Position numbers and translations under genes: made by a program
Assembly (NCBI GenBank): GCA_001783805.1
Contig: MFNS01000006.1
Coordinates: 34,095 to 98,094 of the forward strand
Origin: Candidatus Levybacteria bacterium RIFCSPHIGHO2_01_FULL_40_16
GTDB lineage: Bacteria > Patescibacteriota > Microgenomatia > Levybacterales > UBA12049
Direction: 5' to 3'
DNA: 64,000 bases
In this document: piece by piece, positions 3,514 through 64,000 of the stretch
How positions within the stretch are numbered: the stretch's first letter is position 1
Layout of the letters: each line of letters begins with the position of its first letter
Notes under the pieces: model-generated
Seen by the model: the letters and a program-made list of their open reading frames with translations, nothing else
Told to the model about the DNA's origin: nothing
Databases searched by the model: none

Positions 3514-3627
3514 ATGAAAGTTCAGTCAAGTGTTAAGAAAAGATGCGTTAAATGCAGGATAATCAGGCGCGCAGGTGTTGTAAGGGTTGTTTGCGAAGTC
3601 CCCAAGCACAAGCAAAGACAAGGATAA
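3514..3627 (+). CDS. rpmJ: 50S ribosomal protein L36
   Basis: Not in ORF track (37 aa): [37 protein letters not shown]; Cys/His zinc ribbon; between infA and rpsM. Confidence 0.85.
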
Positions 3628-3632
3628 ATTAA

Positions 3633-3660
3633 GGTCATCCTGAACTTGTTTCAGGATCCC
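3633..3660. repeat. hairpin element family A (GGTCATCCTGAA-cttgt-TTCAGGATCCC), copy 1
   Basis: 8-bp perfect stem atcctgaa/ttcaggat; near-identical inverted copy at 63323..63355. Confidence 0.6.
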
Positions 3661-3722
3661 GAAAGAAATTTGGGAGATACTGAAATAAATTCAGCATGAC
3701 ATTGAAATAAGCAGGGATAAAT

Positions 3723-4124
3723 ATGAGAATTGCCGGATATAATTTACAAGATCTGAAAAGAGTTGATATTGCTTTAACTTATATTTATGGAATCGGACGC
3801 AAAAATGTTGTAAGCATCCTTAAAAAGGCAGAAGTAGAGGGTAACAAAAGAGTAAAGTCTTTGTCCGAAGATGAGCAAAAAAGAATTCAAAAAGTTTTGG
3901 AAGGATATAAGCTGGAAGGAGACTTAAGGGCTGAAGTACACGGAAACATCAAAAGATTAAAAGAAATCGGCTCTTACAGGGGCTCACGGCATAGCAAGAA
4001 CTTGCCCGTTCGCGGTCAGCGCACAAGATCAAATGCCAGAACAAAAAGAGGAAAGAGGGTTACAATCGGAGCTATCAAGAAAGAGGAAGCAGTGAAAACA
4101 GAAACGCAAAAGGAGACGAAATAA
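3723..4124 (+). CDS. rpsM: 30S ribosomal protein S13
   Basis: Strong S13 similarity (MRIAGYNL...GIGRKN). Confidence 0.9.
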   Translation: MRIAGYNLQDLKRVDIALTYIYGIGRKNVVSILKKAEVEGNKRVKSLSEDEQKRIQKVLEGYKLEGDLRAEVHGNIKRLKEIGSYRGSRHSKNLPVRGQRTRSNARTKRGKRVTIGAIKKEEAVKTETQKETK

Positions 4125-5187: not shown

Positions 5188-6111
5188 ATGGCTAATCCAG
5201 CGTTTAAGGTAAAAGAAGAAAAAATCGCTGAAAATCACAGCGAATTTGCAATAGAGCCTTTGGAGCCGGGATACGGTCATACCTTGGGTAATGCCTTAAG
5301 GAGAACTCTTCTTACTTCTATTCCTGGTGCAGCTGTAACATCAATAAAAATAACTGGTGTAAGGCATAGGTTCTCAACGATTCCGGGAGTTAAAGAAAAT
5401 GTCGTTGATTTCTTGCTTAATATGAAGGGCTTGAACTTTCGTCTTCTTGACGAATCAAGCAAAGGCAAAGCATCATTATCTGTAAAAGGGTCAAAGAAAA
5501 TAACTGGTGCAGATTTTGATCTTCCTGAGAATGTTGAGATTGTTAATAAAGATCACTATGTAGCATCTATTAATGACAAAAAAGCTAAGCTTGAGATGGA
5601 ATTAACAATTGAGCAGGGATTAGGGTATTCATCCGCGGAAGAAAGACGAAGCACAACGTTGGGGCTCATCCCCACAGATGCCGTATTTACCCCTGTTAAG
5701 AGAGTAAGCTATGAAGTTTCCGCTACCCGGGTCGGAAGACAGACAGATTTGGATAAATTGGTATTAAGCGTCTGGACAAATGGAATTGTTAGTCCGAAAG
5801 ATGCGCTCGTTGAGGCATCTAAAATTTTAACCGCATATTTTCTGCAGGTTTATGAGCCAAAATCTGTGATTTCTTCAGAATCAATCAGTGCAAAGCCGTC
5901 AATTGCAGACAACATTTCCAAATTGACTATTGATGAGCTAGATCTGCCAACTAGAATCTACAATAGTCTTAGAAATGGCGGAATTGAAACATTGGGTCAG
6001 CTTTTAGCTACCACAAAGAAGGACCTGATATCAATGCGTAATATGGGAAACAAATCTATAATGGTCGTTGAAGAAAAACTTAAAGAAAAAGGCGTAGCAT
6101 TAACGCAATAA
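5188..6111 (+). CDS. rpoA: DNA-directed RNA polymerase subunit alpha
   Basis: RpoA N-terminal domain (GHTLGNALRRTLL) and C-terminal domain; start taken at internal ATG after rpsD stop. Confidence 0.85.
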   Translation: MANPAFKVKEEKIAENHSEFAIEPLEPGYGHTLGNALRRTLLTSIPGAAVTSIKITGVRHRFSTIPGVKENVVDFLLNMKGLNFRLLDESSKGKASLSVKGSKKITGADFDLPENVEIVNKDHYVASINDKKAKLEMELTIEQGLGYSSAEERRSTTLGLIPTDAVFTPVKRVSYEVSATRVGRQTDLDKLVLSVWTNGIVSPKDALVEASKILTAYFLQVYEPKSVISSESISAKPSIADNISKLTIDELDLPTRIYNSLRNGGIETLGQLLATTKKDLISMRNMGNKSIMVVEEKLKEKGVALTQ

Positions 6112-6121
6112 ATTGCGTTAA
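6100..6121. terminator. perfect 10-bp palindrome spanning rpoA stop codon (TTAACGCAAT-aa-ATTGCGTTAA)
   Basis: Perfect inverted repeat read directly; no downstream T-tract. Confidence 0.35.
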
Positions 6122-6123
6122 AG

Positions 6124-6171
6124 TTCAAATCTTAAAGCTCAAAGCTCAAAGCTACAGCTCAAATCTTAAAA
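6124..6171. repeat. heptamer tandem repeat array (CTCAAAG-like, about 7 units), intergenic rpoA-rplQ
   Basis: ttcaaat cttaaag ctcaaag ctcaaag ctacag ctcaaat cttaaaa. Confidence 0.6.
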
Positions 6172-6259
6172 CTATTCTAAAAGATTTAAAGTTTTTAGAT
6201 TTAGTTTTGACTTTTGACATTTCCCCCTCTGGGGACAGGTGAGTTTTGAGTTTTTTAAT

Positions 6260-6721
6260 ATGAGAAAGAATGTTTTCGGAAGACAATTTAGCAGAGATAC
6301 GAATGAAAGAAAGTCGCTTTTTAAGAGTCTTATCTCTGCTCTAATTCTTCAAGAAAGCATTCAGACAACCTTGGAAAAAGCAAAGGCAATAAAGGGAGAC
6401 GTTGATAAAATCATAAATCAAGCCAAAAGAGGAAATGAAAGGCAAGCGATCCAACTTTTGCAACGCAGTCTTGGAGTAGAGGCACTTAATAAAGTTATAA
6501 AAGATTTGTTGCCTCGATTTAAAGATCGGACCAGCGGATACACAAGAATTATAAAATTAGGCAGGAGATTTTCGGACAATGCCGCGATGGTCGTGATGGA
6601 ATGGGTGGTAAAACCAGAAATTAAAAATGAAAAATTAAAAATGAAAAATGACGTTAAGAAATTATTAGCGGGAAAAATTGAGGAAAAACAAAAAGCAAAA
6701 GGAAAGGTTGCAAAGAAATGA
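6260..6721 (+). CDS. rplQ: 50S ribosomal protein L17
   Basis: L17 core (GYTRIIKLGRRFSDNA); Lys-rich C-terminal tail partly encoded by heptamer repeats. Confidence 0.85.
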   Translation: MRKNVFGRQFSRDTNERKSLFKSLISALILQESIQTTLEKAKAIKGDVDKIINQAKRGNERQAIQLLQRSLGVEALNKVIKDLLPRFKDRTSGYTRIIKLGRRFSDNAAMVVMEWVVKPEIKNEKLKMKNDVKKLLAGKIEEKQKAKGKVAKK

Positions 6722-15099: not shown

Positions 15100-15588
15100 A
15101 TGGATAATTTTGAAAAATTTTACAATAAGGCACTGGAGTTCTTGTCTTATCGTCCACGGTCGGAGAAAGAAGTGAGAGACCGTTTGAAGCTCAAAACTCA
15201 AAAGTCAAAGCTCAAAAGTTCAACTCAAAACTCAAAATTAATTGATAGTATTGTTGAAAAACTTAAGGAAAAGAAGTTTATTGATGATGAAGGGTTTGCT
15301 AAGGGATGGGTTGAAAGCAGGTTAAGATTTAAGCCGCGAAGTTTACGTTTAATACAATTGGAATTAAAACAGAAAGGCATAGATCAAGAAATAATTAACA
15401 ATTTACAGTTAACAGATGACAGCGATTTGAAATCCGCAAAACAGCTTGTTGGAAAGAGGATTGAGAGACTGAAGGGCTTACCAAGGCAAAAAATCTATGA
15501 AAAATTGGGTAGATATTTGGCTTCAAAAGGATTTAACTGGGATACGATCAAAAAGAGTATTGACGAGATATTGGACAAAGGAGTATAA
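15100..15588 (+). CDS. recX: RecA regulator RecX
   Basis: RecX-like helical repeats, directly after recA; contains in-frame heptamer-repeat insert (LKTQKSKLKSSTQNSKL). Confidence 0.7.
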   Translation: MDNFEKFYNKALEFLSYRPRSEKEVRDRLKLKTQKSKLKSSTQNSKLIDSIVEKLKEKKFIDDEGFAKGWVESRLRFKPRSLRLIQLELKQKGIDQEIINNLQLTDDSDLKSAKQLVGKRIERLKGLPRQKIYEKLGRYLASKGFNWDTIKKSIDEILDKGV

Positions 15589-16965: not shown

Positions 16966-16976
16966 GTCTTCAATAA

Positions 16977-17037
16977 ATCCTGCACTTTTTTGAGCATTTA
17001 ATTATTTTACGTTTACATTTTTTCTAAAGTGCAGGAT
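16977..17037. terminator. 12-bp perfect inverted repeat (ATCCTGCACTTT ... AAAGTGCAGGAT) after rny, followed by A/T run
   Basis: Perfect arms with 37-nt loop, 12 nt after rny stop. Confidence 0.4.
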
Positions 17038-22026: not shown

Positions 22027-23157
22027 TTAGTCGAAATAGAGCTCTGGGTTAGCAATGATTTTATTCCATGACATTTTTTCCGGGTGGAAGCAAGCATATG
22101 AGCCGATCATCGCGGCATTATCGGTACACAAACTTTTTTCAGGATAAAAAAGTTTAATTTCCAATTTCAAATTTCCAATTTCAAATTTCAAATGATCGCG
22201 GAGCTTTTGATTGCAAGCGACACCGCCGCCCAAAAGAATTGATTTTACCTTGTATTTTTTCGCTGCCCTGATAGTTTTGCGGACGAGAACTTCAATAATT
22301 GATTTTTGGACGCAGGCGCAAATGTCTGCAATGACAGCTTCTTTAAGTTGGGGTCCTGCCGCCAGTTTCCCTCCCGCCAGTGCTCCTTCCAAGCGTTCAG
22401 TCCGCGCTGTCGGGAGCCCTTCCTCTGGCGTCACCCCTCTTTTTAATTTGTTAACTTCGCGCCAGACTGCTGCTTTAAGACCAGAAAAAGAAAAATCAAA
22501 ATCTTTTGAGCCAATCATCGGCCGTGGGAACGTAAAGCGACTAGCAATGCCACGTTCTGAAAGCTTTTCGATTATTGGACCTGCGGGATAAGGTAGATTT
22601 AAAAGCCTGCCGATTTTGTCAAAAGCTTCCCCTGCCGCATCATCTCGGGTTCCGCCCAGCCACTCAAAGTTATTGTAATCTTTCATTAATAACAAATCAG
22701 TGTGTCCTCCCGAAACTAGTAATGTAATTGCCGGAAATTCAATTTTTGATTTTTGATTTTTGATTTTTGATTTTTCGCTAACGAAGTTAGCGAATATGTG
22801 TCCGAGTAAATGATTTACAGGAATTATGGGTTTTTTCCAAAGATAACCTAAAGTTTTTGCAGTTTCAACTCCAATCAGAAGCGATCCAATGAGTCCCGGG
22901 CCTTCGGTTACAGCAATTGCGTCAATGTCTTTAATTTTTAATTTAGAATTATCAATTGCCTTTTCTACTACCGGAATAATGAATTTCAATTGTTCGCGGG
23001 CTGCGATATCGGGAATAATTCCGCCGGTTTTTGCATGGAAAGTTAAGGATGACGCAACAACATTTGCTAAAACTTTAACGTAATTTTCTTTGGGATTTTT
23101 GGAAACGACAGCGGCTGCGGTTTCATCACAACTGGTTTCAATTGCCAAGATTTTCAT
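22027..23157 (-). CDS. tsaD: tRNA N6-adenosine threonylcarbamoyltransferase TsaD
   Basis: MKILAIETSCDETAAAV, HxxGH metal site, Kae1/TsaD fold; two in-frame heptamer-repeat inserts. Confidence 0.9.
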   Translation of the reverse strand: MKILAIETSCDETAAAVVSKNPKENYVKVLANVVASSLTFHAKTGGIIPDIAAREQLKFIIPVVEKAIDNSKLKIKDIDAIAVTEGPGLIGSLLIGVETAKTLGYLWKKPIIPVNHLLGHIFANFVSEKSKIKNQKSKIEFPAITLLVSGGHTDLLLMKDYNNFEWLGGTRDDAAGEAFDKIGRLLNLPYPAGPIIEKLSERGIASRFTFPRPMIGSKDFDFSFSGLKAAVWREVNKLKRGVTPEEGLPTARTERLEGALAGGKLAAGPQLKEAVIADICACVQKSIIEVLVRKTIRAAKKYKVKSILLGGGVACNQKLRDHLKFEIGNLKLEIKLFYPEKSLCTDNAAMIGSYACFHPEKMSWNKIIANPELYFD

Positions 23158-23620: not shown

Positions 23621-24102
23621 TAATTCACATTAATTAATTTCATGTATTTAGTTGTTGAGTGGTTTTGAATTTTTTTGACTGCATAAATAACTTTGCCCTG
23701 AACTAATTTTGCCTGTCTTCTTTTATGTCTCACATATGGGTCGCCTTGGGTAGTCGCAATTATGTCAGGGCGTATTTCGACCATGAGTTTATCATACAGA
23801 TCATTATTTGTCATGTTTTTAAGCATGATTATATAACTAACACTTTCAAGGGAAGATAAGACTTTCGCGCGGTCTTGCTGGGAATTTATTGGCCGGTGTT
23901 TACCTTTTTCTCTTGCGGCTTTACTGTCATCCTCCAGTAATAAGAAGAGATAGTTGGCATATTTTTTTGATTTTTCCAAAAACTTGATGTGGCCTAAATG
24001 CAATATGTCAAAAAATCCGCCAACAACAACAATTGTTTCGTTTAATTTTCTAATTTTTTTTGCGATTTCGATAGCTTCTTTTATATCTAAGATTTTTTTC
24101 AC
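23620..24102 (-). CDS. cytidylyltransferase-like protein (RfaE domain II / heptose-1-P adenylyltransferase-like)
   Basis: GTG start; GGFFDILHLGHIKFL (HxGH) and KGKHRPI blocks. Confidence 0.5.
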   Translation of the reverse strand: MKKILDIKEAIEIAKKIRKLNETIVVVGGFFDILHLGHIKFLEKSKKYANYLFLLLEDDSKAAREKGKHRPINSQQDRAKVLSSLESVSYIIMLKNMTNNDLYDKLMVEIRPDIIATTQGDPYVRHKRRQAKLVQGKVIYAVKKIQNHSTTKYMKLINVN

Positions 24103-24159
24103 AATTTTTAATTTTCAATTTTTAATTTTCATTGAAAATTTTAAATTTCAAATTTCAAA
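24103..24159. repeat. A/T-only heptamer-like repeats with 8-bp palindrome (AATTTTCA-tt-TGAAAATT) between convergent genes
   Basis: aattttc aattttt aattttc attgaaaatt ttaaatttcaaatttcaaa. Confidence 0.5.
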
Positions 24160-25611
24160 TTAGTTTTCCTTTGTACCCCTAAGAAAAATAGATTGCCAGG
24201 GAGCGTAATTTGAAATAAAGGTCTCCGAGATAATTTTTTTACCATTTTTCATTACTTCCCTTGCGAAAGAGGCTCTTGATCCTTCCGCACTGAAATCTAT
24301 TTGTTTTACTGTTCCCTTTGGCAGGGTTGGATCATCTTGGTATAGATCCGGGGGCGGCGGAACTCGGTTGGTAATTACCGGCTGAGTCAGGGTAACTTCT
24401 CTTCCGTCTTTAGTACCATAAAGAAAAACTGAGAGTCTTTGCTCTTCCAGATCGATTTGAGTTTGTACAAGGATGTAGTTACCGGTATCATTTTTGAATT
24501 TTAAGTCGACGCTCGGGACAAAAACAGTAGCATCCAGTCCTGGCAGACTGTCCTGCTCATAATACCCAACCCGATACGCGTGAGCATGCCTCTCCGTAAT
24601 TGGAACCCCCGCATTGAGAATTGCTCTGAAGAAAGTGGTTGATACTTGACAAATACCTCCTCCATCACCAAGCACTGTTTTGCCATTTTGGATAATATAG
24701 GCTTGTTGGTAGCCTGTAAAGGAAGAAACATCGCCCAAGGCTTTGGCAAAAGAAAATTCTTCATTGGGGGCAATTAGAACTCTATTTATTCTGGATGCGG
24801 CCAGGGTAATGTTGAATATTCTCTGAGGTATTGAATGCTGAAAAAGAGAAGTTCCCGTTCCAATCAATTCTTTTATGCCCAAATTGTTTGCTTTATCCGT
24901 AGTTATTTTAGGCGAAAAAGTTTTGATGGTAACCGGAATAACTATTTCTTGAGTTTTTTGTACTAACAATACCTTTTCAAATTGAGCTCTCAAATCTTGC
25001 TTAACTTTCTCCATATCAACCGCTTTGCCTTCTTCAGACGGTTTGAATGCCAGGACTTTTCCGTTTTGAAAAGTGAAAAGCGCATCAACGGGTTCCTTAT
25101 TCACCTTTTCTATAAATGGGGTCAAGGTTTTATTCAGCATGTCTTCGGAATAGCGGTATGCCGGCTGCAAATTTAATCCATTAAAGTATGCCTGAAAAGC
25201 AATGCTAATATTAGAGAGAAATTCATGGGATTTTCCCAAGCCTATTGCCTGCTGAGCAATGAGCTTTTCATCATAGCCAAACTTCAAATCTTTAGCTGAA
25301 ATTGTCGCTATATTCTCCGAAAGTGAAAATGTAAATTGAGTATTTTCAATAGTCTCGTTTCTCTTAGCAAACAATTCCTCGACTTCCTTTTGAGTAGATC
25401 CTCCTACGTAGATGTTATTAAACGTTATTCCCGGATAAACAACGCCGGCGTTCACCTTTTCATAGATAATAAATGTAAAACTTGCAAATAAAAATGCTGC
25501 CAAGACTGCTCCGGTAATAAACCAAAAGCAGGCTTTCATAATGCGTGTAATAATTTTTTTCCGGATTTTTAATTTTTTAGTTTGCTTCATTTGATATACT
25601 ATAGCTGACAT
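24160..25611 (-). CDS. VanW family protein (membrane-anchored)
   Basis: N-terminal TM; VanW core GDGGGICQVSTTFFRAILNAGVPITERHAH. Confidence 0.65.
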   Translation of the reverse strand: MSAIVYQMKQTKKLKIRKKIITRIMKACFWFITGAVLAAFLFASFTFIIYEKVNAGVVYPGITFNNIYVGGSTQKEVEELFAKRNETIENTQFTFSLSENIATISAKDLKFGYDEKLIAQQAIGLGKSHEFLSNISIAFQAYFNGLNLQPAYRYSEDMLNKTLTPFIEKVNKEPVDALFTFQNGKVLAFKPSEEGKAVDMEKVKQDLRAQFEKVLLVQKTQEIVIPVTIKTFSPKITTDKANNLGIKELIGTGTSLFQHSIPQRIFNITLAASRINRVLIAPNEEFSFAKALGDVSSFTGYQQAYIIQNGKTVLGDGGGICQVSTTFFRAILNAGVPITERHAHAYRVGYYEQDSLPGLDATVFVPSVDLKFKNDTGNYILVQTQIDLEEQRLSVFLYGTKDGREVTLTQPVITNRVPPPPDLYQDDPTLPKGTVKQIDFSAEGSRASFAREVMKNGKKIISETFISNYAPWQSIFLRGTKEN

Positions 25612-38114: not shown

Positions 38115-38150
38115 GGATAAATCCAGCACCGAATCGGTGCTGGATAAAAC
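38115..38150. repeat. hairpin element family B copy 1 (ATCCAGCACC-gaatc-GGTGCTGGAT) in HK / RlpA-like divergent intergenic
   Basis: Perfect 10-bp inverted repeat flanked by GGATAA ... AAAAC; degenerate copy at 46562..46594. Confidence 0.55.
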
Positions 38151-46379: not shown

Positions 46380-46577
46380 ATGAATTACAATATCCAGACA
46401 AATTTTTTCAATGTTAAAGAAGTTTCAGTATTTTTAAAATTAAGCGCACTAACAGTTTACAAATATATCTCGGAGAAAAAAATTAAAGCAATACAGTTTG
46501 GCGGACGTTACCTTATCGATAAATCCTCACTTAATAAATTTGTGAAAGAGAGAAAATTAAGTAAATCCAGCACCTGA
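46380..46577 (+). CDS. helix-turn-helix (excisionase/MerR-like HTH_17) DNA-binding protein
   Basis: VKEVSVFLKLSALTVYKYISEKKIKAIQFGGRYLI pattern; start may be 46338. Confidence 0.45.
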   Translation: MNYNIQTNFFNVKEVSVFLKLSALTVYKYISEKKIKAIQFGGRYLIDKSSLNKFVKERKLSKSST

Positions 46578-46594
46578 TTGGTGACGGATAAAAC
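46562..46594. repeat. hairpin element family B copy 2 (degenerate: ATCCAGCACC-tgatt-GGTGACGGAT), overlaps HTH stop, upstream of tsaC
   Basis: Shares TAAATCCAGCACC and GGATAAAAC with copy at 38115..38150. Confidence 0.5.
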
Positions 46595-46627: not shown

Positions 46628-47206
46628 ATGGATAAGGTTAAAAAAGCAATTGAAGTTTTAAGGCAGGGCGGAATAGTTATTTTTCCAACAGATACGGCTA
46701 TCGGCATTGGCTGCAGAGTAGATGATAAAAAAGCAGTAGAAAGATTATTTAAAATCCGCAAAAGACCTGAAAATAAACCAATGTTAATATTGGTTAATTC
46801 GATTGAGATGGCTCAAGATTATTTATTACCAATTTCTCAAGAAATTAAGAATAAGCTGATTAAACGCTATTGGCCGGGAAAGCTTACAATTATTCTGCAA
46901 AGCAAAATTGATAAGGTGCCAAATTTGGTAAGAGGCGGAACAAATACTCTTGGCGTTAGATTTCCCGATAGTAAAAATTTGTTAAAATTAATTAGCGGAG
47001 TGGGCGTACCAGTTGTTGCGCCATCTGCAAATTTTGCAGGCGAGAAAACACCGTTTAGATTTGAAGATCTAAATCCAAAACTTATAAAACAAGCGGATTA
47101 TGTTTTAAATGAAGAAATAAGTTTGGAAAAAAATGTTTCAACTATAATTGATTGTACGGTTACGCCCTGGAAGGTTATCAGAGAAGGAGCGGTAAAGATA
47201 AATTAA
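46628..47206 (+). CDS. tsaC: L-threonylcarbamoyladenylate synthase (YrdC/Sua5 domain)
   Basis: YrdC motifs (FPTDTAIGIG, VRGGTNTLGVRFP, PSANFAG). Confidence 0.8.
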   Translation: MDKVKKAIEVLRQGGIVIFPTDTAIGIGCRVDDKKAVERLFKIRKRPENKPMLILVNSIEMAQDYLLPISQEIKNKLIKRYWPGKLTIILQSKIDKVPNLVRGGTNTLGVRFPDSKNLLKLISGVGVPVVAPSANFAGEKTPFRFEDLNPKLIKQADYVLNEEISLEKNVSTIIDCTVTPWKVIREGAVKIN

Positions 47207-47208
47207 AA

Positions 47209-47565
47209 ATGAAAAATGAAAAATTAAAAATTATTTTGGTACTAGATACTGCAGATAGTCAAGAAATTACAGTAGGTTTGATTATTGATGGCCGGAAAGA
47301 CATTCAAACCAAAAAGGTTATTTTCAATAAGACACAAATTATCCTGCCAATGGTTGATAAGATTCTAAAAAAACATTTATTAGCGCCAAAAGATTTATCG
47401 GAAATTCAAATTAACCTCGGGCCGGGATCATTCACAGGCTTACGGATTGGTCTTGCCATTGCCAATGCTTTGTCTTTTGTTCTCAAAGTTCCGGTTAATG
47501 GAAAAAAAGCCGGAGAAATAATTTTGCCAATATATTCCTCCTCCGCGAAAAGCAAACAGCATTAG
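47209..47565 (+). CDS. tsaB: TsaB (YeaZ)-like protein, N-terminal domain only (short form)
   Basis: ILVLDTA ... GPGSFTGLRIGLAIANAL; only about 119 aa from ATG at 47209. Confidence 0.55.
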   Translation: MKNEKLKIILVLDTADSQEITVGLIIDGRKDIQTKKVIFNKTQIILPMVDKILKKHLLAPKDLSEIQINLGPGSFTGLRIGLAIANALSFVLKVPVNGKKAGEIILPIYSSSAKSKQH

Positions 47566-51075: not shown

Positions 51076-51938
51076 AAATTTTGGGAACGGGACTAGATGG
51101 GCTTGTTGGGTCAAGAATAATTGAGCTTTTAAGCGGTAAGCATGAGTTTGAGAATCTCAGCCTCAGTACGGGAGCGGACATTACGGATAGGAATGCAATT
51201 CTCCAAAAAATCAAAAACTCGGATGCTCAAATCATGCTTCACTTAGCCGCGAAAACCGATGTTGATGGATGCGAATTGGATAAGCCATTAGGAGAAAAAG
51301 GAGATGCTTGGAAAATTAATGTGTTTGGAACACAAAACGTAGTTGACGGATGTTCGGAGAGTAATAAAAAAATAATTTATATTTCTACGGATTTTGTTTT
51401 TGATGGAACAAAAGAAGCTTATTCGGAAGAAGATGCTCCAAATCCGCTCAGCTGGTACGCCAAAACAAAATATGAGGGAGAAAAAATCGTCCAAACTTCA
51501 AAAATTCCCTGGATCATTGTCCGTATTGCCTCTCCCTATAGGGCAGTATTCAAAAAATTAGATTTTACTCGCGCGATTCTTAAGCGTTTACAAGAAGGAC
51601 TTTCTGTAGTAGCGGTTAAGGATCATATTTTTACTCCGACATTTATTGACGATATTGCCTTGGCAATCGACGTTCTGATTGCAGATAATTTACAGGGCAT
51701 ATTCCATGCCGTTGGGAGTCAGAGCTTAACACCTTTTGCTGCCTCTATTCTGATAGCAAAAGAATTTAGTTTGGATTCATCTAAAATCACTGAAACTAGA
51801 AGAGCTGAGTTTTTTAATAATCGAGCGCCCAGGTCTTTCCAACTGGCGCTGAAAAATGATAAAATACAAAGATTAGGAGTAAAAATGAAGACGTTTGAAG
51901 AAGGACTGAGAGAGATAAAAAAACAAGGGATAATTTGA
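51072..51938 (+). CDS. rmlD: dTDP-4-dehydrorhamnose reductase-like (RmlD family)
   Basis: ATGA overlap with rmlB; LGTGLDGLVGSRI Rossmann motif, YAKTKYEGE (YxxxK). Confidence 0.7.
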   Translation: MKILGTGLDGLVGSRIIELLSGKHEFENLSLSTGADITDRNAILQKIKNSDAQIMLHLAAKTDVDGCELDKPLGEKGDAWKINVFGTQNVVDGCSESNKKIIYISTDFVFDGTKEAYSEEDAPNPLSWYAKTKYEGEKIVQTSKIPWIIVRIASPYRAVFKKLDFTRAILKRLQEGLSVVAVKDHIFTPTFIDDIALAIDVLIADNLQGIFHAVGSQSLTPFAASILIAKEFSLDSSKITETRRAEFFNNRAPRSFQLALKNDKIQRLGVKMKTFEEGLREIKKQGII

Positions 51939-52034
51939 AATTTTAAATTTGCAATTTTCAATCAAATCTAAATTTTAAAATTAAAACATTAAAAATTCAT
52001 TAAAAATTAAAAATTTTAAATTGAAAATTAAGTT
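51939..52034. repeat. 96-nt A/T-only low-complexity heptamer-like repeat tract (AAATTTT/AAAATTA units) filling rmlD-ugd intergenic
   Basis: Essentially G/C-free; periodic aaatttt, aaaatta, aaaattc units. Confidence 0.5.
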
Positions 52035-55337: not shown

Positions 55338-56312
55338 ATGGATAAATCAAGAAAAAGAGTATTGGTAGCAGGTGGTGCGGGATTTATTGGTTCGCATTTA
55401 TGCAAAAGTTTATTAGACGGGAATTACAAAGTAATCGCAATAGACAATCTTCTGACAAGTACTAAAGATAATTTAAAAGATCTTCTAAAAAATCCTGAAT
55501 TCACATTTTTAGAGCATGATGTTACCGACCAAATTTCAAATTTCAAATTTCAAATTTCAAATTTGGACTATATCTTCCACTTGGCAAGTCCTGCATCCCC
55601 AAATCAAAAAAGCGCAAGGAGTTACATAAATCATCCAATAGAAACTTTACTTGCAAATTCACTTGGAACATATAATCTTTTGGAATTAACCCGTCAATTT
55701 AACGCTAAATTTTTATATGCTTCTTCATCCGAAGTTTACGGAGATCCCGCAATATCTCCTCAAAAGGAAGATTATTTTGGTAGTGTAAATCCAAATGGAA
55801 TAAGATCTGTGTATGATGAGGGAAAAAGATTTGGAGAAGCAATTACATCTGGGTACGTACGGAAATATGGTTTGGATGCTCGCATAATTCGTATTTTTAA
55901 CACTTACGGACCAATAATGCTGGCTGATGATGGAAGGGTGGTGTCTAATTTCATTAACCAGGCAATAGAAAATAAGCCGATTACAGTTTATGGAAAAGGT
56001 ACTCAAACAAGAAGTCTTTGCTATGTTGATGATATGGTTTCCGGAATAAAACTGGCAATGCTGACTCCGAATACCAAGGGAGAAGTTTTTAATTTAGGTA
56101 ATCCGGATGAGCGAAGCATTCTAGATATTGCAAAGCTTATTAAGAGTCTGACCAATTCAAAATCAAAAATTGTTTTTGAAGATTTGCCTATCGATGATCC
56201 AAAATCCAGAAAGCCTGATATCGCCAAAGCAAAAAGAATTTTAGGGTGGGAACCAAAAGTCTCAACAGAGAGAGGCTTACGAAAAACCATAGATTATTTT
56301 AGAAACATATGA
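55338..56312 (+). CDS. UDP-glucuronate decarboxylase (UDP-xylose synthase, UXS/ArnA-decarboxylase-like SDR)
   Basis: GGAGFIGSHL, HLASPASP, YDEGKR (YxxxK), RIFNTYGP; carries heptamer-encoded insert ISNFKFQISN. Confidence 0.7.
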   Translation: MDKSRKRVLVAGGAGFIGSHLCKSLLDGNYKVIAIDNLLTSTKDNLKDLLKNPEFTFLEHDVTDQISNFKFQISNLDYIFHLASPASPNQKSARSYINHPIETLLANSLGTYNLLELTRQFNAKFLYASSSEVYGDPAISPQKEDYFGSVNPNGIRSVYDEGKRFGEAITSGYVRKYGLDARIIRIFNTYGPIMLADDGRVVSNFINQAIENKPITVYGKGTQTRSLCYVDDMVSGIKLAMLTPNTKGEVFNLGNPDERSILDIAKLIKSLTNSKSKIVFEDLPIDDPKSRKPDIAKAKRILGWEPKVSTERGLRKTIDYFRNI

Positions 56313-61399: not shown

Positions 61400-61975
61400 A
61401 TGTTGTCTGATTTAATCACTTCGCAATCCAGAATAAAACTATTAAATGTCCTGTTGGCCGAGCCTACGGAAATGCTTCATGTTAGGGAGCTGGTAAGAAG
61501 AACGGGGGACGAAATTAACGCAGTCAGACGCGAACTTTTGTTTTTAGAAAAAAAAGGAATTCTCACCCGAGAACCTCGCGCCAATAGAGTATATTATTCA
61601 TTATCTAAAAATTATCTTTTTTATTTCGATCTTTTAAGAATGGGTGCAAAAATAGTAGGCCTAGGGGATGCGATATTAAAAAACCGCGTTAAGATTGGGA
61701 AAATAAAATATGCAATGTTTTCCGGAAAATTTGCAAGAAGAATGGAAAAAAGACCGACAGATGTTGACTTTATCATTGTCGGAACAATTGTACTGCCTGA
61801 ATTGGCGGTTCTGATCAGGGACGAAGAGAAAAGATTGGGGAGAGAAATTAATTATACAGTGATGACAGAGGAAGAATTTTCATTCAGAAAGAAAAAAAGA
61901 GACCCATTTATACTGTCCGTTCTCTTAGGATCTAGAGTCATGCTCTATGGGGACGAGGAAAGTATGCTAGCATGA
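61400..61975 (+). CDS. winged-helix transcriptional regulator-like protein
   Basis: N-terminal wHTH (LHVRELVRRTGDEINAVRRELLFLEKKGIL); C-terminal domain unassigned. Confidence 0.4.
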   Translation: MLSDLITSQSRIKLLNVLLAEPTEMLHVRELVRRTGDEINAVRRELLFLEKKGILTREPRANRVYYSLSKNYLFYFDLLRMGAKIVGLGDAILKNRVKIGKIKYAMFSGKFARRMEKRPTDVDFIIVGTIVLPELAVLIRDEEKRLGREINYTVMTEEEFSFRKKKRDPFILSVLLGSRVMLYGDEESMLA

Positions 61976-63333
61976 AAAAGAGTCCTCAATTTCTTCTTTG
62001 GTTTATTATTTTATTAACAATTTTGGGCATTGTTGTTAATCTTCCTTCAAAAGGTTTTCTTTCTTTCACAAAATCTTTATCCTTTAAGGAAGGATTGGAC
62101 CTTGCGGGAGGTACGAGTTTAACCTTGAAAGCGGACATGAAAAGCATAGATCAAGCTCAAAGAGGTAAAGCTTTAGAGTCGGCAAAAACAGTGATAGAGC
62201 AAAGAACAAACTATTTTGGAGTATCAGAACCCATTGTCCAAACCGCGGTTAGCGGAAATGATTATCGTGTAATTGTGGAATTGCCGGGTGTTAACATAGA
62301 TCAGGCAAAAAACATCATTGGTACAACCGCACAACTTTCTTTCTGGGAGGGAACAGCAACCAGCTCATCCGTTTCAGTTAAAACGCAGGCGGACATTCAA
62401 TTGCTTGTTGCAACCCAATCTGCGTATCCGCCTAGCGTAGTGTTAGCCTTAGGAACATATCCTAGTAAAACAGATCTTAGCGGAGCAGATCTCAAAGAAA
62501 CAAGCGTTGGATTTGACCAAAATAGTGGTAAACCCGAAGTGCAATTAAAATTTACATCTCAAGGCGCAAAGAAGTTTGCAGATATTACAAGTCGAAATGT
62601 TGGTAAAATCGTCGCAATTGCCTTGGATAATCAGGTCATCGAGGCGCCCCGCGTGAATCAGCCAATACTAACTGGAGATGCAGTAATAACGGGGGGATTT
62701 ACTACACAGACTGCAAATGCGGTGAGTAAATCGCTTAATGCAGGAGCGTTGCCGGTGCCTCTTGTGTATTTACAGCAGCATGGTGTGGAAGCAACTTTAG
62801 GCAGAGAATCCTTATTGAAAAGTCTTTTTGCAGGAGTATTGGGAATACTGATTATCATTATTTTTATGACTGTTTTGTACGGAAAATTGGGAATTATTGC
62901 AAGCGTTGCCTTAATAATTTATACCTTACTGGTTGCTTCGATTCTTAAAATTAGCAGCGTTACTCCGTACGCAATAACGCTGACGCTCTCAGGAATAGCG
63001 GGATTTATTCTATCAATCGGTATGGCGGTTGATGCGAACATTCTGATTTTTGAGAGAATGAAAGAAGAAAGAAGAAGTGGTCGGTCATGGCATGAATCAT
63101 TGGAATTAGGATTTACAAGAGCTTGGACATCAATCCGGGATTCGAATATCTCAAGTCTAATAACTTGCTCCGTTCTATATCAATTTGGAACGGGTTCTGT
63201 CAAAGGATTTGCGCTAACTCTGGCAATTGGAGTTTTGGTCTCTATGTTTTCGGCAATCGTTGTAACGCGAACATTATTAAATGTCATGCTGAACTCGTTT
63301 CAGCATCCGGTTCCTAAAGAGACGGGATCCTGA
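61972..63333 (+). CDS. secD: protein translocase subunit SecD
   Basis: N-terminal TM, periplasmic domain, C-terminal 5-TM SecD/F block; followed by secF. Confidence 0.85.
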   Translation: MKKSPQFLLWFIILLTILGIVVNLPSKGFLSFTKSLSFKEGLDLAGGTSLTLKADMKSIDQAQRGKALESAKTVIEQRTNYFGVSEPIVQTAVSGNDYRVIVELPGVNIDQAKNIIGTTAQLSFWEGTATSSSVSVKTQADIQLLVATQSAYPPSVVLALGTYPSKTDLSGADLKETSVGFDQNSGKPEVQLKFTSQGAKKFADITSRNVGKIVAIALDNQVIEAPRVNQPILTGDAVITGGFTTQTANAVSKSLNAGALPVPLVYLQQHGVEATLGRESLLKSLFAGVLGILIIIIFMTVLYGKLGIIASVALIIYTLLVASILKISSVTPYAITLTLSGIAGFILSIGMAVDANILIFERMKEERRSGRSWHESLELGFTRAWTSIRDSNISSLITCSVLYQFGTGSVKGFALTLAIGVLVSMFSAIVVTRTLLNVMLNSFQHPVPKETGS

Positions 63334-63355
63334 AATAAATTCAGGATGACACGGG
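63323..63355. repeat. hairpin element family A copy 2 (CGGGATCCTGAAA-taaa-TTCAGGATGAC), overlaps secD stop
   Basis: 28 of 32 nt identical to reverse complement of 3631..3661. Confidence 0.6.
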
Positions 63356-63362
63356 AGAAATT

Positions 63363-64000
63363 ATGAATATTATCGGACATAAAAATTGGTATTTTGGTTT
63401 ATCTTTATTGGTTATCATTACGGGACTTATTGCAATTTTCCTGTGGGGATTAAATCTTTCCATTGAATTTACCGGTGGCTCTAGGCTGACCTTAGCTTTT
63501 AATGATGTGGTTGGCGATAAACAGATTAAAATAGTTGACGAAGCTTTGAAAGCGGAAAAGATAAAAATAGCCAGTATTGAGAAATCAAACAAATTGATTT
63601 TCGTCAGAACGTCTCCGATAGATCAAAATCAAAATAATAAATTTATAAATACGCTATCGAAGAATTTTAAAGACGTTAAAGAGCGGGAGTTTGAGACAAT
63701 AGGTCCGGTAATAGGGCAAGAAACAACCTTTAATGCTTTAAAGGCAATTATAATAGCGTCGGTTTTGATTATTCTTTATATAACCTGGTCATTCAGACAG
63801 GTTCCCAAGCCTGCCAGCAGTTTCCGGTTTGGGGTCTGCGCAATTATTGCCTTAATTCATGATGTGCTGGTGGTAGTCGGGGTTTTTGCAATTCTAGGAC
63901 ATTTTTTTGGAGTTGAAATAGATTCTCTTTTTGTGACCGCCATTCTAACAGTAATTGGTTTTTCAGTTCACGATACAATTGTTGTTTTTGATAGAATCCG
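63363..64000 (+). CDS. secF: protein translocase subunit SecF (N-terminal part; continues past window)
   Basis: ATG at 63363; MNIIGHKNWYFGLSLLVI...; open to window end. Confidence 0.8.
   Translation, partial: MNIIGHKNWYFGLSLLVIITGLIAIFLWGLNLSIEFTGGSRLTLAFNDVVGDKQIKIVDEALKAEKIKIASIEKSNKLIFVRTSPIDQNQNNKFINTLSKNFKDVKEREFETIGPVIGQETTFNALKAIIIASVLIILYITWSFRQVPKPASSFRFGVCAIIALIHDVLVVVGVFAILGHFFGVEIDSLFVTAILTVIGFSVHDTIVVFDRI

Follow-up and report, generated by a model that had tools for sequence, protein, structure and literature searches.

Two CGTC/TGTC-tagged REP dimers at the rpmJ-rpsM and secD-secF junctions of a Levybacteria genome, with a GIY-YIG nuclease gene as their candidate partner

The window analyzed here is a 64-kb stretch of Levybacteria DNA. 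Two elements of about 70 nt were found in it, each composed of two inverted hairpins with 8-bp stems. The first (3633-3701) lies between rpmJ (3514-3627) and rpsM (3723-4124), with its hairpins at 3634-3657 and 3677-3700. The second (63282-63351) has its hairpins at 63283-63306 and 63327-63350, contributes the final 17 codons of secD (61972-63333) together with its stop codon, and ends 12 nt before the secF ATG (63363). An earlier sequence-only reading had reported a palindromic hairpin after rpmJ. This hairpin is real and was detected at 3634-3660 in the rpmJ-rpsM spacer, but it is only half of the feature, the second hairpin of the same element (3677-3700) lying 17 nt downstream. The features at the two sites are as follows.

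3633..3701, no strand: REP dimer 1, a head-to-head tagged hairpin pair in the rpmJ-rpsM spacer
3634..3660, plus strand: unit 1a, tag (G)GTC at 3633-3636, stem ATCCTGAA (3637-3644) / TTCAGGAT (3650-3657), loop CTTGT, tail CCC
3674..3701, minus strand: unit 1b, minus-strand reading TGTC-ATGCTGAA-tttat-TTCAGTAT-ctc, one G.T position in the stem
3622..3629, plus strand: left copy of the flanking duplication GGATAAAT, comprising the rpmJ end and stop
3715..3722, plus strand: right copy of the flanking duplication GGATAAAT, abutting the rpsM ATG at 3723
63282..63351, no strand: REP dimer 2, a head-to-head pair spanning the secD 3' end and the secD-secF spacer
63282..63309, plus strand: unit 2a, TGTC-ATGCTGAA-ctcgt-TTCAGCAT-ccg, within the secD coding sequence
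63324..63351, minus strand: unit 2b, minus-strand reading TGTC-ATCCTGAA-tttat-TTCAGGAT-ccc, holding the secD stop codon TGA (63331-63333)
63280..63333, plus strand: element-encoded SecD C-terminus NVMLNSFQHPVPKETGS, in place of the ancestral ...RTIYK
63258..63380, no strand: patch of difference between filled and empty alleles, made up of the element and clustered flanking substitutions relative to locus L127

Each hairpin follows the formula (C/T)GTC-AT-S-CTGAA-YTYRT-TTCAG-S'-AT-CYC. All four window units share the 8-bp stem AT-S-CTGAA / TTCAG-S'-AT, with 5-nt loops CTTGT, CTCGT, and TTTAT (twice). The tag is TGTC in three units and GGTC in one, and the 3-nt tails are CCC, CTC, CCG, and CCC. 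The motif GTCATSCTGAA-N5-TTCAGSAT had 8 matches in the 64-kb window against 0.05 expected, and no CTGAA-type dimer other than these two was found there. The reverse complement of 3634-3660 does match 63323-63350, as the earlier reading stated (28-nt arms, 93% complementary), and the second hairpin at secD does carry the stop codon in its stem. The secD copy had also been called inverted, which does not hold. The two elements are direct copies, each a head-to-head dimer, and align as direct repeats over about 100 nt with 81% column identity. What produces the inverted match is that the two hairpins of any one element are reverse complements of each other.

The same reading had linked these hairpins to an inverted repeat after rny. 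That repeat exists (16977-16988 / 17026-17037, 12 bp with a 37-nt loop), but it is unrelated: GTC tag, CTGAA/TTCAG stem, and YTYRT loop are all missing. ATCCTG is all that it has in common with the CGTC-tagged units, and it was grouped instead with a second hairpin family, AATCCNGCAC...GTGCNGGATAAAA, found at 16976-17037 (after rny), 38120-38145, and 46564-46589 with stems of 10-12 bp. AATCCNGCAC matched 5 times in the 64-kb window against 0.32 expected. The window also holds intergenic A/T-rich repeats with a 7-nt period (AAATTTC, CTCAAAG, AAAAATG), often forming long imperfect palindromes, at 2730-2786, 6118-6174, 6611-6664, 15184-15240, 22150-22193, 22738-22782, 24090-24160, 47193-47232, and 51926-52029. 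At 55530-55565, (AAATTTC)x5 lies within a NAD-dependent epimerase-like ORF (55338..56312) and encodes ...QISNFKFQISNL....

Scanning one genome per species with the pattern TCATNCTGAA-N5-TTCAG-N15-40-CTGAA-N5-TTCAGNATGA retrieved dimers at 120 or more genome loci across many phyla. In these, two inverted units surround a variable spacer of 15-40 nt, and the tag is CGTC or TGTC in nearly all of the 120 loci listed. Hosts among the matches listed include Sphingomonadales and a Rickettsia endosymbiont (Alphaproteobacteria), many Bacteroidota, and, within Patescibacteria, Roizman-, Levy-, Magasanik-, Moranii-, Gracili-, and Saccharibacteria, together with Gastranaerophilales, Elusimicrobia, Treponema, Nitrospirota, Ignavibacteria, Armatimonadota, Bdellovibrionales, and Syntrophaceae. 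Several other genomes carry 2-5 copies within 8 kb. The family is thus extremely widespread, where a repeat limited to two copies and absent from relatives would have spoken against the original description. Phage carriage was considered as a vector of cross-phylum spread and rejected, with only 3 matches in 2.9 million IMG/VR viral contigs. Rfam returned no family at the gathering threshold for the whole window, nor up to an E value of 10 for the locus, where only chance matches to miRNA precursors appeared, and a literature search by sequence string gave only unrelated primer matches.

Pairing in 108 dimers among the matches listed was used to distinguish two local hairpins from one long one. 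The variable stem position finds its partner inside the same hairpin in 99/108 and 105/108 dimers, as C-G, G-C, T-A, or A-T, whereas the pairing required by a single long hairpin is present in 31/108. Other stem variants also stay paired (ATTCCGAA/TTCGGAAT, ACCCTGAA/TTCAGGGT, AACCTGAA/TTCAGGTT, and ATTCCGCA/TGCGGAAT). Therefore, the selected structure is two separate 8-bp hairpins, kept by compensatory changes. Covariation, not energy, carries this conclusion and rules out the long hairpin as the selected structure, even though that hairpin is the thermodynamic minimum of the whole element folded as RNA (about -31 kcal/mol). Within a dimer, the two loops are chosen independently, being identical in 28 of the matches listed against 22.8 expected. 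Orientation is strongly constrained, with 135 plus/minus pairs (tags outward) and 8 in other arrangements among the matches listed. The unpaired parts, namely the (C/T)GTC tag, the YTYRT loop, and the C(C/T)C tail, are kept across phyla, which argues for sequence-specific recognition by a protein.

These properties place the window elements in the superfamily of CGTC-tagged REPs described by Di Nocera, De Gregorio and Rocco in 2013 (PMC3733652), with families CGTC-1 to -4. According to that survey, the units have a terminal CGTC tag, often TGTC and also CCTC, stems of 8-9 bp that nearly always begin with A-T and T-A, a loop 4-5 nt long, and three tail nucleotides. They occur mostly as head-to-head dimers, with heterodimers predominating in CGTC-2, and are located near where the upstream ORF ends, with some intragenic in-frame copies (PMC3733652). 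The window units share the tag, the AT-first stem, the 5-nt loop, the head-to-head arrangement, and the position after a stop codon; they also have a tail of 3 nt, though not of the published sequence. In addition, the intragenic CGTC-2 peptide RHSELVSGS of Sulfurovum back-translates to CGTCATTCnGAACTnGTnTCnGGnTC, which is essentially the window unit. The window elements probably belong to a CGTC-2-like subfamily. The earlier suggestion of a REP/MITE-like repeated hairpin was correct: the units fit the published definition of CGTC-tagged REPs, at least 120 other genomes carry them, and near-identical strains differ in having or lacking them.

Among the matches listed, the classifiable dimers lie between co-directional genes in 63 cases, between convergent genes in 20, between divergent genes in 13, and inside a long ORF in 9, usually near a stop codon. 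The distance from the preceding stop codon is typically 10-40 nt. One methionyl-tRNA synthetase-like ORF (L080, 2435-4024) contains ...HKELVSGS..., a peptide like that of a CTGAA-type unit read in frame and possibly an intragenic copy. The flanks of 125 dimers showed no consistent target-site duplication; a longest common flanking string of at least 8 nt occurred in 7 of them, against about 1.8 under the null, and consisted of low-complexity sequence. A classical DDE-derived MITE was rejected for this reason, as its inverted termini are present but the fixed-length duplication is not. Dimers were nested within larger palindromes in 18 of the 125 (about 14%), compared with 2.6 expected. In the Rickettsia endosymbiont of Polydrusus (L002, 629-686; L032, 2134-2193), a CTGAA-type dimer sits inside a CGTC-1 palindrome, CCCGCGAAGGCGGGAATCCAG ... 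CTGGATTCCCGCCTTCGCGGG, forming a composite element.

Relatives of the window genome were compared at both sites. At the rpmJ-rpsM junction, most relatives are empty, with the rpmJ stop codon 2-10 nt from the rpsM ATG (caaGGATAAATatg). The window instead has an 85-nt insertion flanked by the 8-nt duplication GGATAAAT. Two other junctions are occupied in different ways: L137 carries a decayed CTGAA-type dimer with a 12-nt flanking duplication, and L156 an unrelated TGTC-tagged dimer with the stem ATTCTGAGGCG.... Together, these two point to a recurrent landing site. In the Levybacteria-like loci L133, L135, L141, L147, L149, and L150, sequence of the 7-nt-period type fills the spacer upstream of rpsM.

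The secD site gave a closer comparison. Window SecD is identical to a protein of Candidatus Levybacteria bacterium RIFCSPLOWO2_01_FULL... (GCA_001782335.1, MFOJ01000008.1), which belongs to the Candidate Phyla Radiation. Levybacteria SecD proteins almost all have 441 aa and end in ...VVTRTFLRTIYK (FLRTIYK), including one that is 99% identical to window SecD, whereas window SecD has 453 aa and ends in ...TRTLLNVMLNSFQHPVPKETGS. L127, which carries the 441-aa allele, is 100% identical to the window over more than 4 kb upstream and 600 bp downstream, except at 63258-63380. In this empty allele (L127 4267-4345), the element is absent, the stop and start codons are adjacent (TAATATG), and the flanking substitutions are clustered, giving a patch of 123 nt. 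Dimer 2 thus rewrote the last residues of SecD by replacing its final codons and stop. L129, with a SecD only 84% identical, carries the element at precisely this position; it is 86-87% similar to the window within the patch and about 75% elsewhere. The filled patch common to the window and L129 also includes a new Shine-Dalgarno-like GGGAG before secF. Judged from these alignments, the patch looks like a short gene-conversion or recombination tract that carried the element between lineages.

These comparisons show recent gain or loss at both window sites, and both copies are best read as recent gains in this Levybacteria lineage. Orthologous conservation of the two copies across Levybacteria is contradicted by the empty sites in most relatives. 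A strain that matches the window perfectly over more than 5 kb lacks the secD copy, and most relatives are empty at both sites; the copies are therefore dispensable.

This dispensability bears on two readings of the elements as RNA-level signals. Intrinsic, possibly bidirectional, transcription terminators would be stable hairpins located 3' of stop codons, as these are. However, no T-run follows either element and a scan found no terminator-like site on the plus strand, in agreement with the earlier statement that these are not classic intrinsic terminators. Both elements also lie within operons, between genes that need co-transcription (rpmJ/rpsM and secD/secF, with the secF ATG so close behind), and therefore they should not be efficient terminators. 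Empty alleles also work without the elements. Termination is a highly improbable explanation. A primary role in RNA, as 3'-end protective hairpins, RNase processing sites, or translation modulators in the rpmJ-rpsM and secD-secF operons, deserves more weight. Both copies sit in transcribed operon spacers and have stable RNA folds (-30 to -33 kcal/mol, z about -5 to -6), and the family prefers positions shortly past stop codons and is somewhat depleted between divergent genes. REPs of E. coli stabilize upstream mRNA and can stall ribosomes when near a stop codon. This reading is nonetheless unlikely, given that the copies are dispensable, that a simple hairpin, including an RNase site, needs no near-identical unpaired tag and loop across phyla, and that the symmetric dimer and the nuclease gene bracketed by such units, described below, point to DNA rather than RNA. 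As a secondary consequence, the elements may plausibly still affect mRNA stability, or translation around the secD stop codon.

A partner gene was sought in an ORF survey, in which all 812 ORFs from the 120 loci listed were clustered and screened for motifs. The only non-housekeeping family recurring near dimers was a protein of about 100 aa (84-105 aa), present at 9 loci. The other recurrent clusters were set aside as common housekeeping families (ABC ATPases, permeases, SDRs, and glycosyltransferases). The recurrent protein is a stand-alone GIY-YIG domain (Pfam PF01541, E values of 1e-11 to 1e-17) with conserved catalytic Tyr, Tyr, Arg, His, Glu, and Asn. Its nearest solved structures are uncharacterized UPF0213 proteins and the N-terminal domain of UvrC, and NCBIfam has no specific family for it. 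In L020 (Patescibacteria, 5319-5710), L103, and L114 (1763-2189), the gene lies exactly between a plus and a minus unit, in the place of the dimer spacer. Within hairpin-rich loci, 3 of 8 GIY-YIG ORFs were bracketed in this way, compared with 4 of 631 other ORFs.

To avoid circularity, 26 loci were collected by protein homology alone, comprising 7 viral contigs, 7 distinct metagenome/NCBI loci, and 12 plasmid or chromosome records. Units were called with a strict detector (GTC, a stem of 8-9 bp with at most 1 mismatch, and a loop of 4-5 nt). Among these protein-ascertained loci, 17/26 had a strict unit within 150 nt of the GIY-YIG ORF, and in 10/26 the ORF was bracketed by a plus unit on the left and a minus unit on the right. 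The background of 0.118 units per kb predicts about 1 locus with any unit and essentially none bracketed. About one third of the loci had no strict unit, and several more GIY-YIG loci are bracketed by variant hairpins that the strict detector missed. These counts establish a statistical association, seen in genomic neighborhoods, between the dimers and the GIY-YIG gene.

GIY-YIG genes also lie between plus and minus CGTC/TGTC-tagged hairpins in L216 (339-746), L252, L253, L256, L258, L261, L265, and L271. The two flanks of the gene in L216 form a 29-nt perfect inverted repeat. The subtype of the associated hairpins varies in part with the clade of the nuclease. Aeromonas, Neisseria, and Azospirillum have ATTCCCGC-gaag (CGTC-1), and Rhizobiaceae have ATCCTCGGG-cttga (CGTC-3). 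Stems are G+C-rich in sphingomonads, a Magasanikbacterium and Planktothrix have ATTC(C/T)GAG types with long loops, and the CTGAA type occurs in Patescibacteria, Nitrospirota, WOR-3, Desulfobacterales, and Bacteroidota. Some of these cassettes adjoin complete dimers (L254, L114, and L265). On plasmid AZO_p3 of Azospirillum lipoferum 4B (L254, 255506-255799), the cassette is located between sufB and sufC with a complete REP dimer on each side, and in Desulfobacterales it is located between genes for NADH-dehydrogenase-like subunits, inside the operon.

Classical REPINs, as in Pseudomonas and E. coli, are mobilized by RAYT, an HUH/Y1 tyrosine transposase, and mobilization of this kind would suit the shared architecture of a 5' unpaired tetranucleotide, a palindrome, and inverted doublets. 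The tag here, however, is CGTC/TGTC and not GTAG, and clustering and the motif screen revealed no Y1/HUH-like ORF among the 812 ORFs of the 120 loci listed, where the recurrent neighbor is the GIY-YIG gene instead. The 2013 survey likewise reports no CGTC unit flanking any tyrosine transposase gene and no dedicated transposase for CGTC-REPs (PMC3733652). RAYT is accordingly a very unlikely mover of these elements.

Taken as a whole, the two window elements are very probably miniature selfish repeat copies, in the form of head-to-head CGTC/TGTC-tagged REP dimers of an ATSCTGAA-YTYRT subtype resembling CGTC-2. Their origin can be framed around the nuclease. CGTC-REPs may be the terminal hairpins or targets of tiny GIY-YIG-only cassettes (UPF0213-like), with the ORF-less dimers as miniature derivatives, a proposal that we judge evenly balanced. 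The hairpins would extrude from single-stranded or cruciform DNA, and the conserved unpaired tag and loop would be read by a trans-acting nuclease, for which the stand-alone GIY-YIG protein encoded between plus and minus units in many genomes is the best candidate. Dimers without an ORF, derived from a GIY-YIG cassette, might then spread in a homing-like way, with cleavage repaired from a filled template and the flanks converted along with it, or through excision and insertion. The window dimers would be passengers, present as stable hairpins in the transcripts of two essential operons that they do not terminate, and the rewritten SecD tail and re-spaced translation starts would be their side effects. 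The order may also be the reverse, with the GIY-YIG gene invading REP dimers that already existed instead of having given rise to them. Neither the 64-kb window nor about 85 kb of sequence from this species yielded a GIY-YIG homolog, so the window copies may be fossils without activity, or inert passengers that recombination has moved.

In itself, what the window holds is one more ordinary member of a published superfamily, whose range it extends to Candidate Phyla Radiation bacteria with their reduced genomes. It is also a clean example of a REP dimer that rewrites the C-terminus of an essential protein (SecD) and re-spaces translationally coupled genes. What moves CGTC REPs has been a question since 2013, and GIY-YIG bracketing across at least 5 hairpin subtypes and many phyla provides a testable candidate. 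If true, the proposal would describe a GIY-YIG-based counterpart of the RAYT-REPIN system and supply the enzyme that the 2013 survey did not find. Its confirmation would establish a novel type of bacterial mobile element with a GIY-YIG nuclease at its core, give a function to annotations of "GIY-YIG nuclease family protein" (at least 8000 clusters), and might yield compact hairpin-structure-specific nucleases.

Compared with known systems, the window elements stand closest to the published CGTC-REPs, from which they differ in tail, hosts, and associated gene. The window-type tail is CYC, where the published consensus is CCA. The hosts reported in 2013 were Proteobacteria (mainly alpha), Chlorobi, Bacteroidetes, Spirochaetes, and Thermotogae (PMC3733652), whereas here they also include Levybacteria, Gastranaerophilales, Elusimicrobia, Nitrospirota, Armatimonadota, and others, and the Candidate Phyla Radiation (Levybacteria) is a new host group for this known repeat superfamily. 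In place of the lack of a dedicated enzyme, a recurrent bracketed GIY-YIG gene is seen here. The Rickettsia repeats RPE-4 and RPE-6, equated with CGTC units in the same survey (PMC3733652), insert in frame into genes, as at the SecD C-terminus, whereas RPE-1 is longer (about 100-150 bp) and Rickettsia-specific.

The REPIN-RAYT system (Bertels and Rainey 2011, PMC3116915) shares the inverted doublet of tagged palindromes with a short spacer and the non-autonomous character, and its full version, a gene flanked by repeats, resembles the bracketed GIY-YIG gene. It differs in its GTAG tag, its HUH/Y1 transposase, and its mostly vertical inheritance within one lineage, whereas window-type units have a CGTC tag, no RAYT, and near-identical sequence across phyla. 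We found no published link of GIY-YIG with REP, REPIN, MITE, YhbQ, or COG2827 in an incomplete coverage of the literature. Free-standing GIY-YIG homing endonucleases (T4 Seg, I-TevI) differ from the proteins here, which have only about 95-106 aa, lack a separate DNA-binding domain, and are bracketed by inverted hairpins. They are alike in the GIY-YIG catalytic domain and in forming intergenic cassettes inside operons, and cleavage and repair with co-conversion of flanks would be expected in both, for which the secD patch is suggestive.
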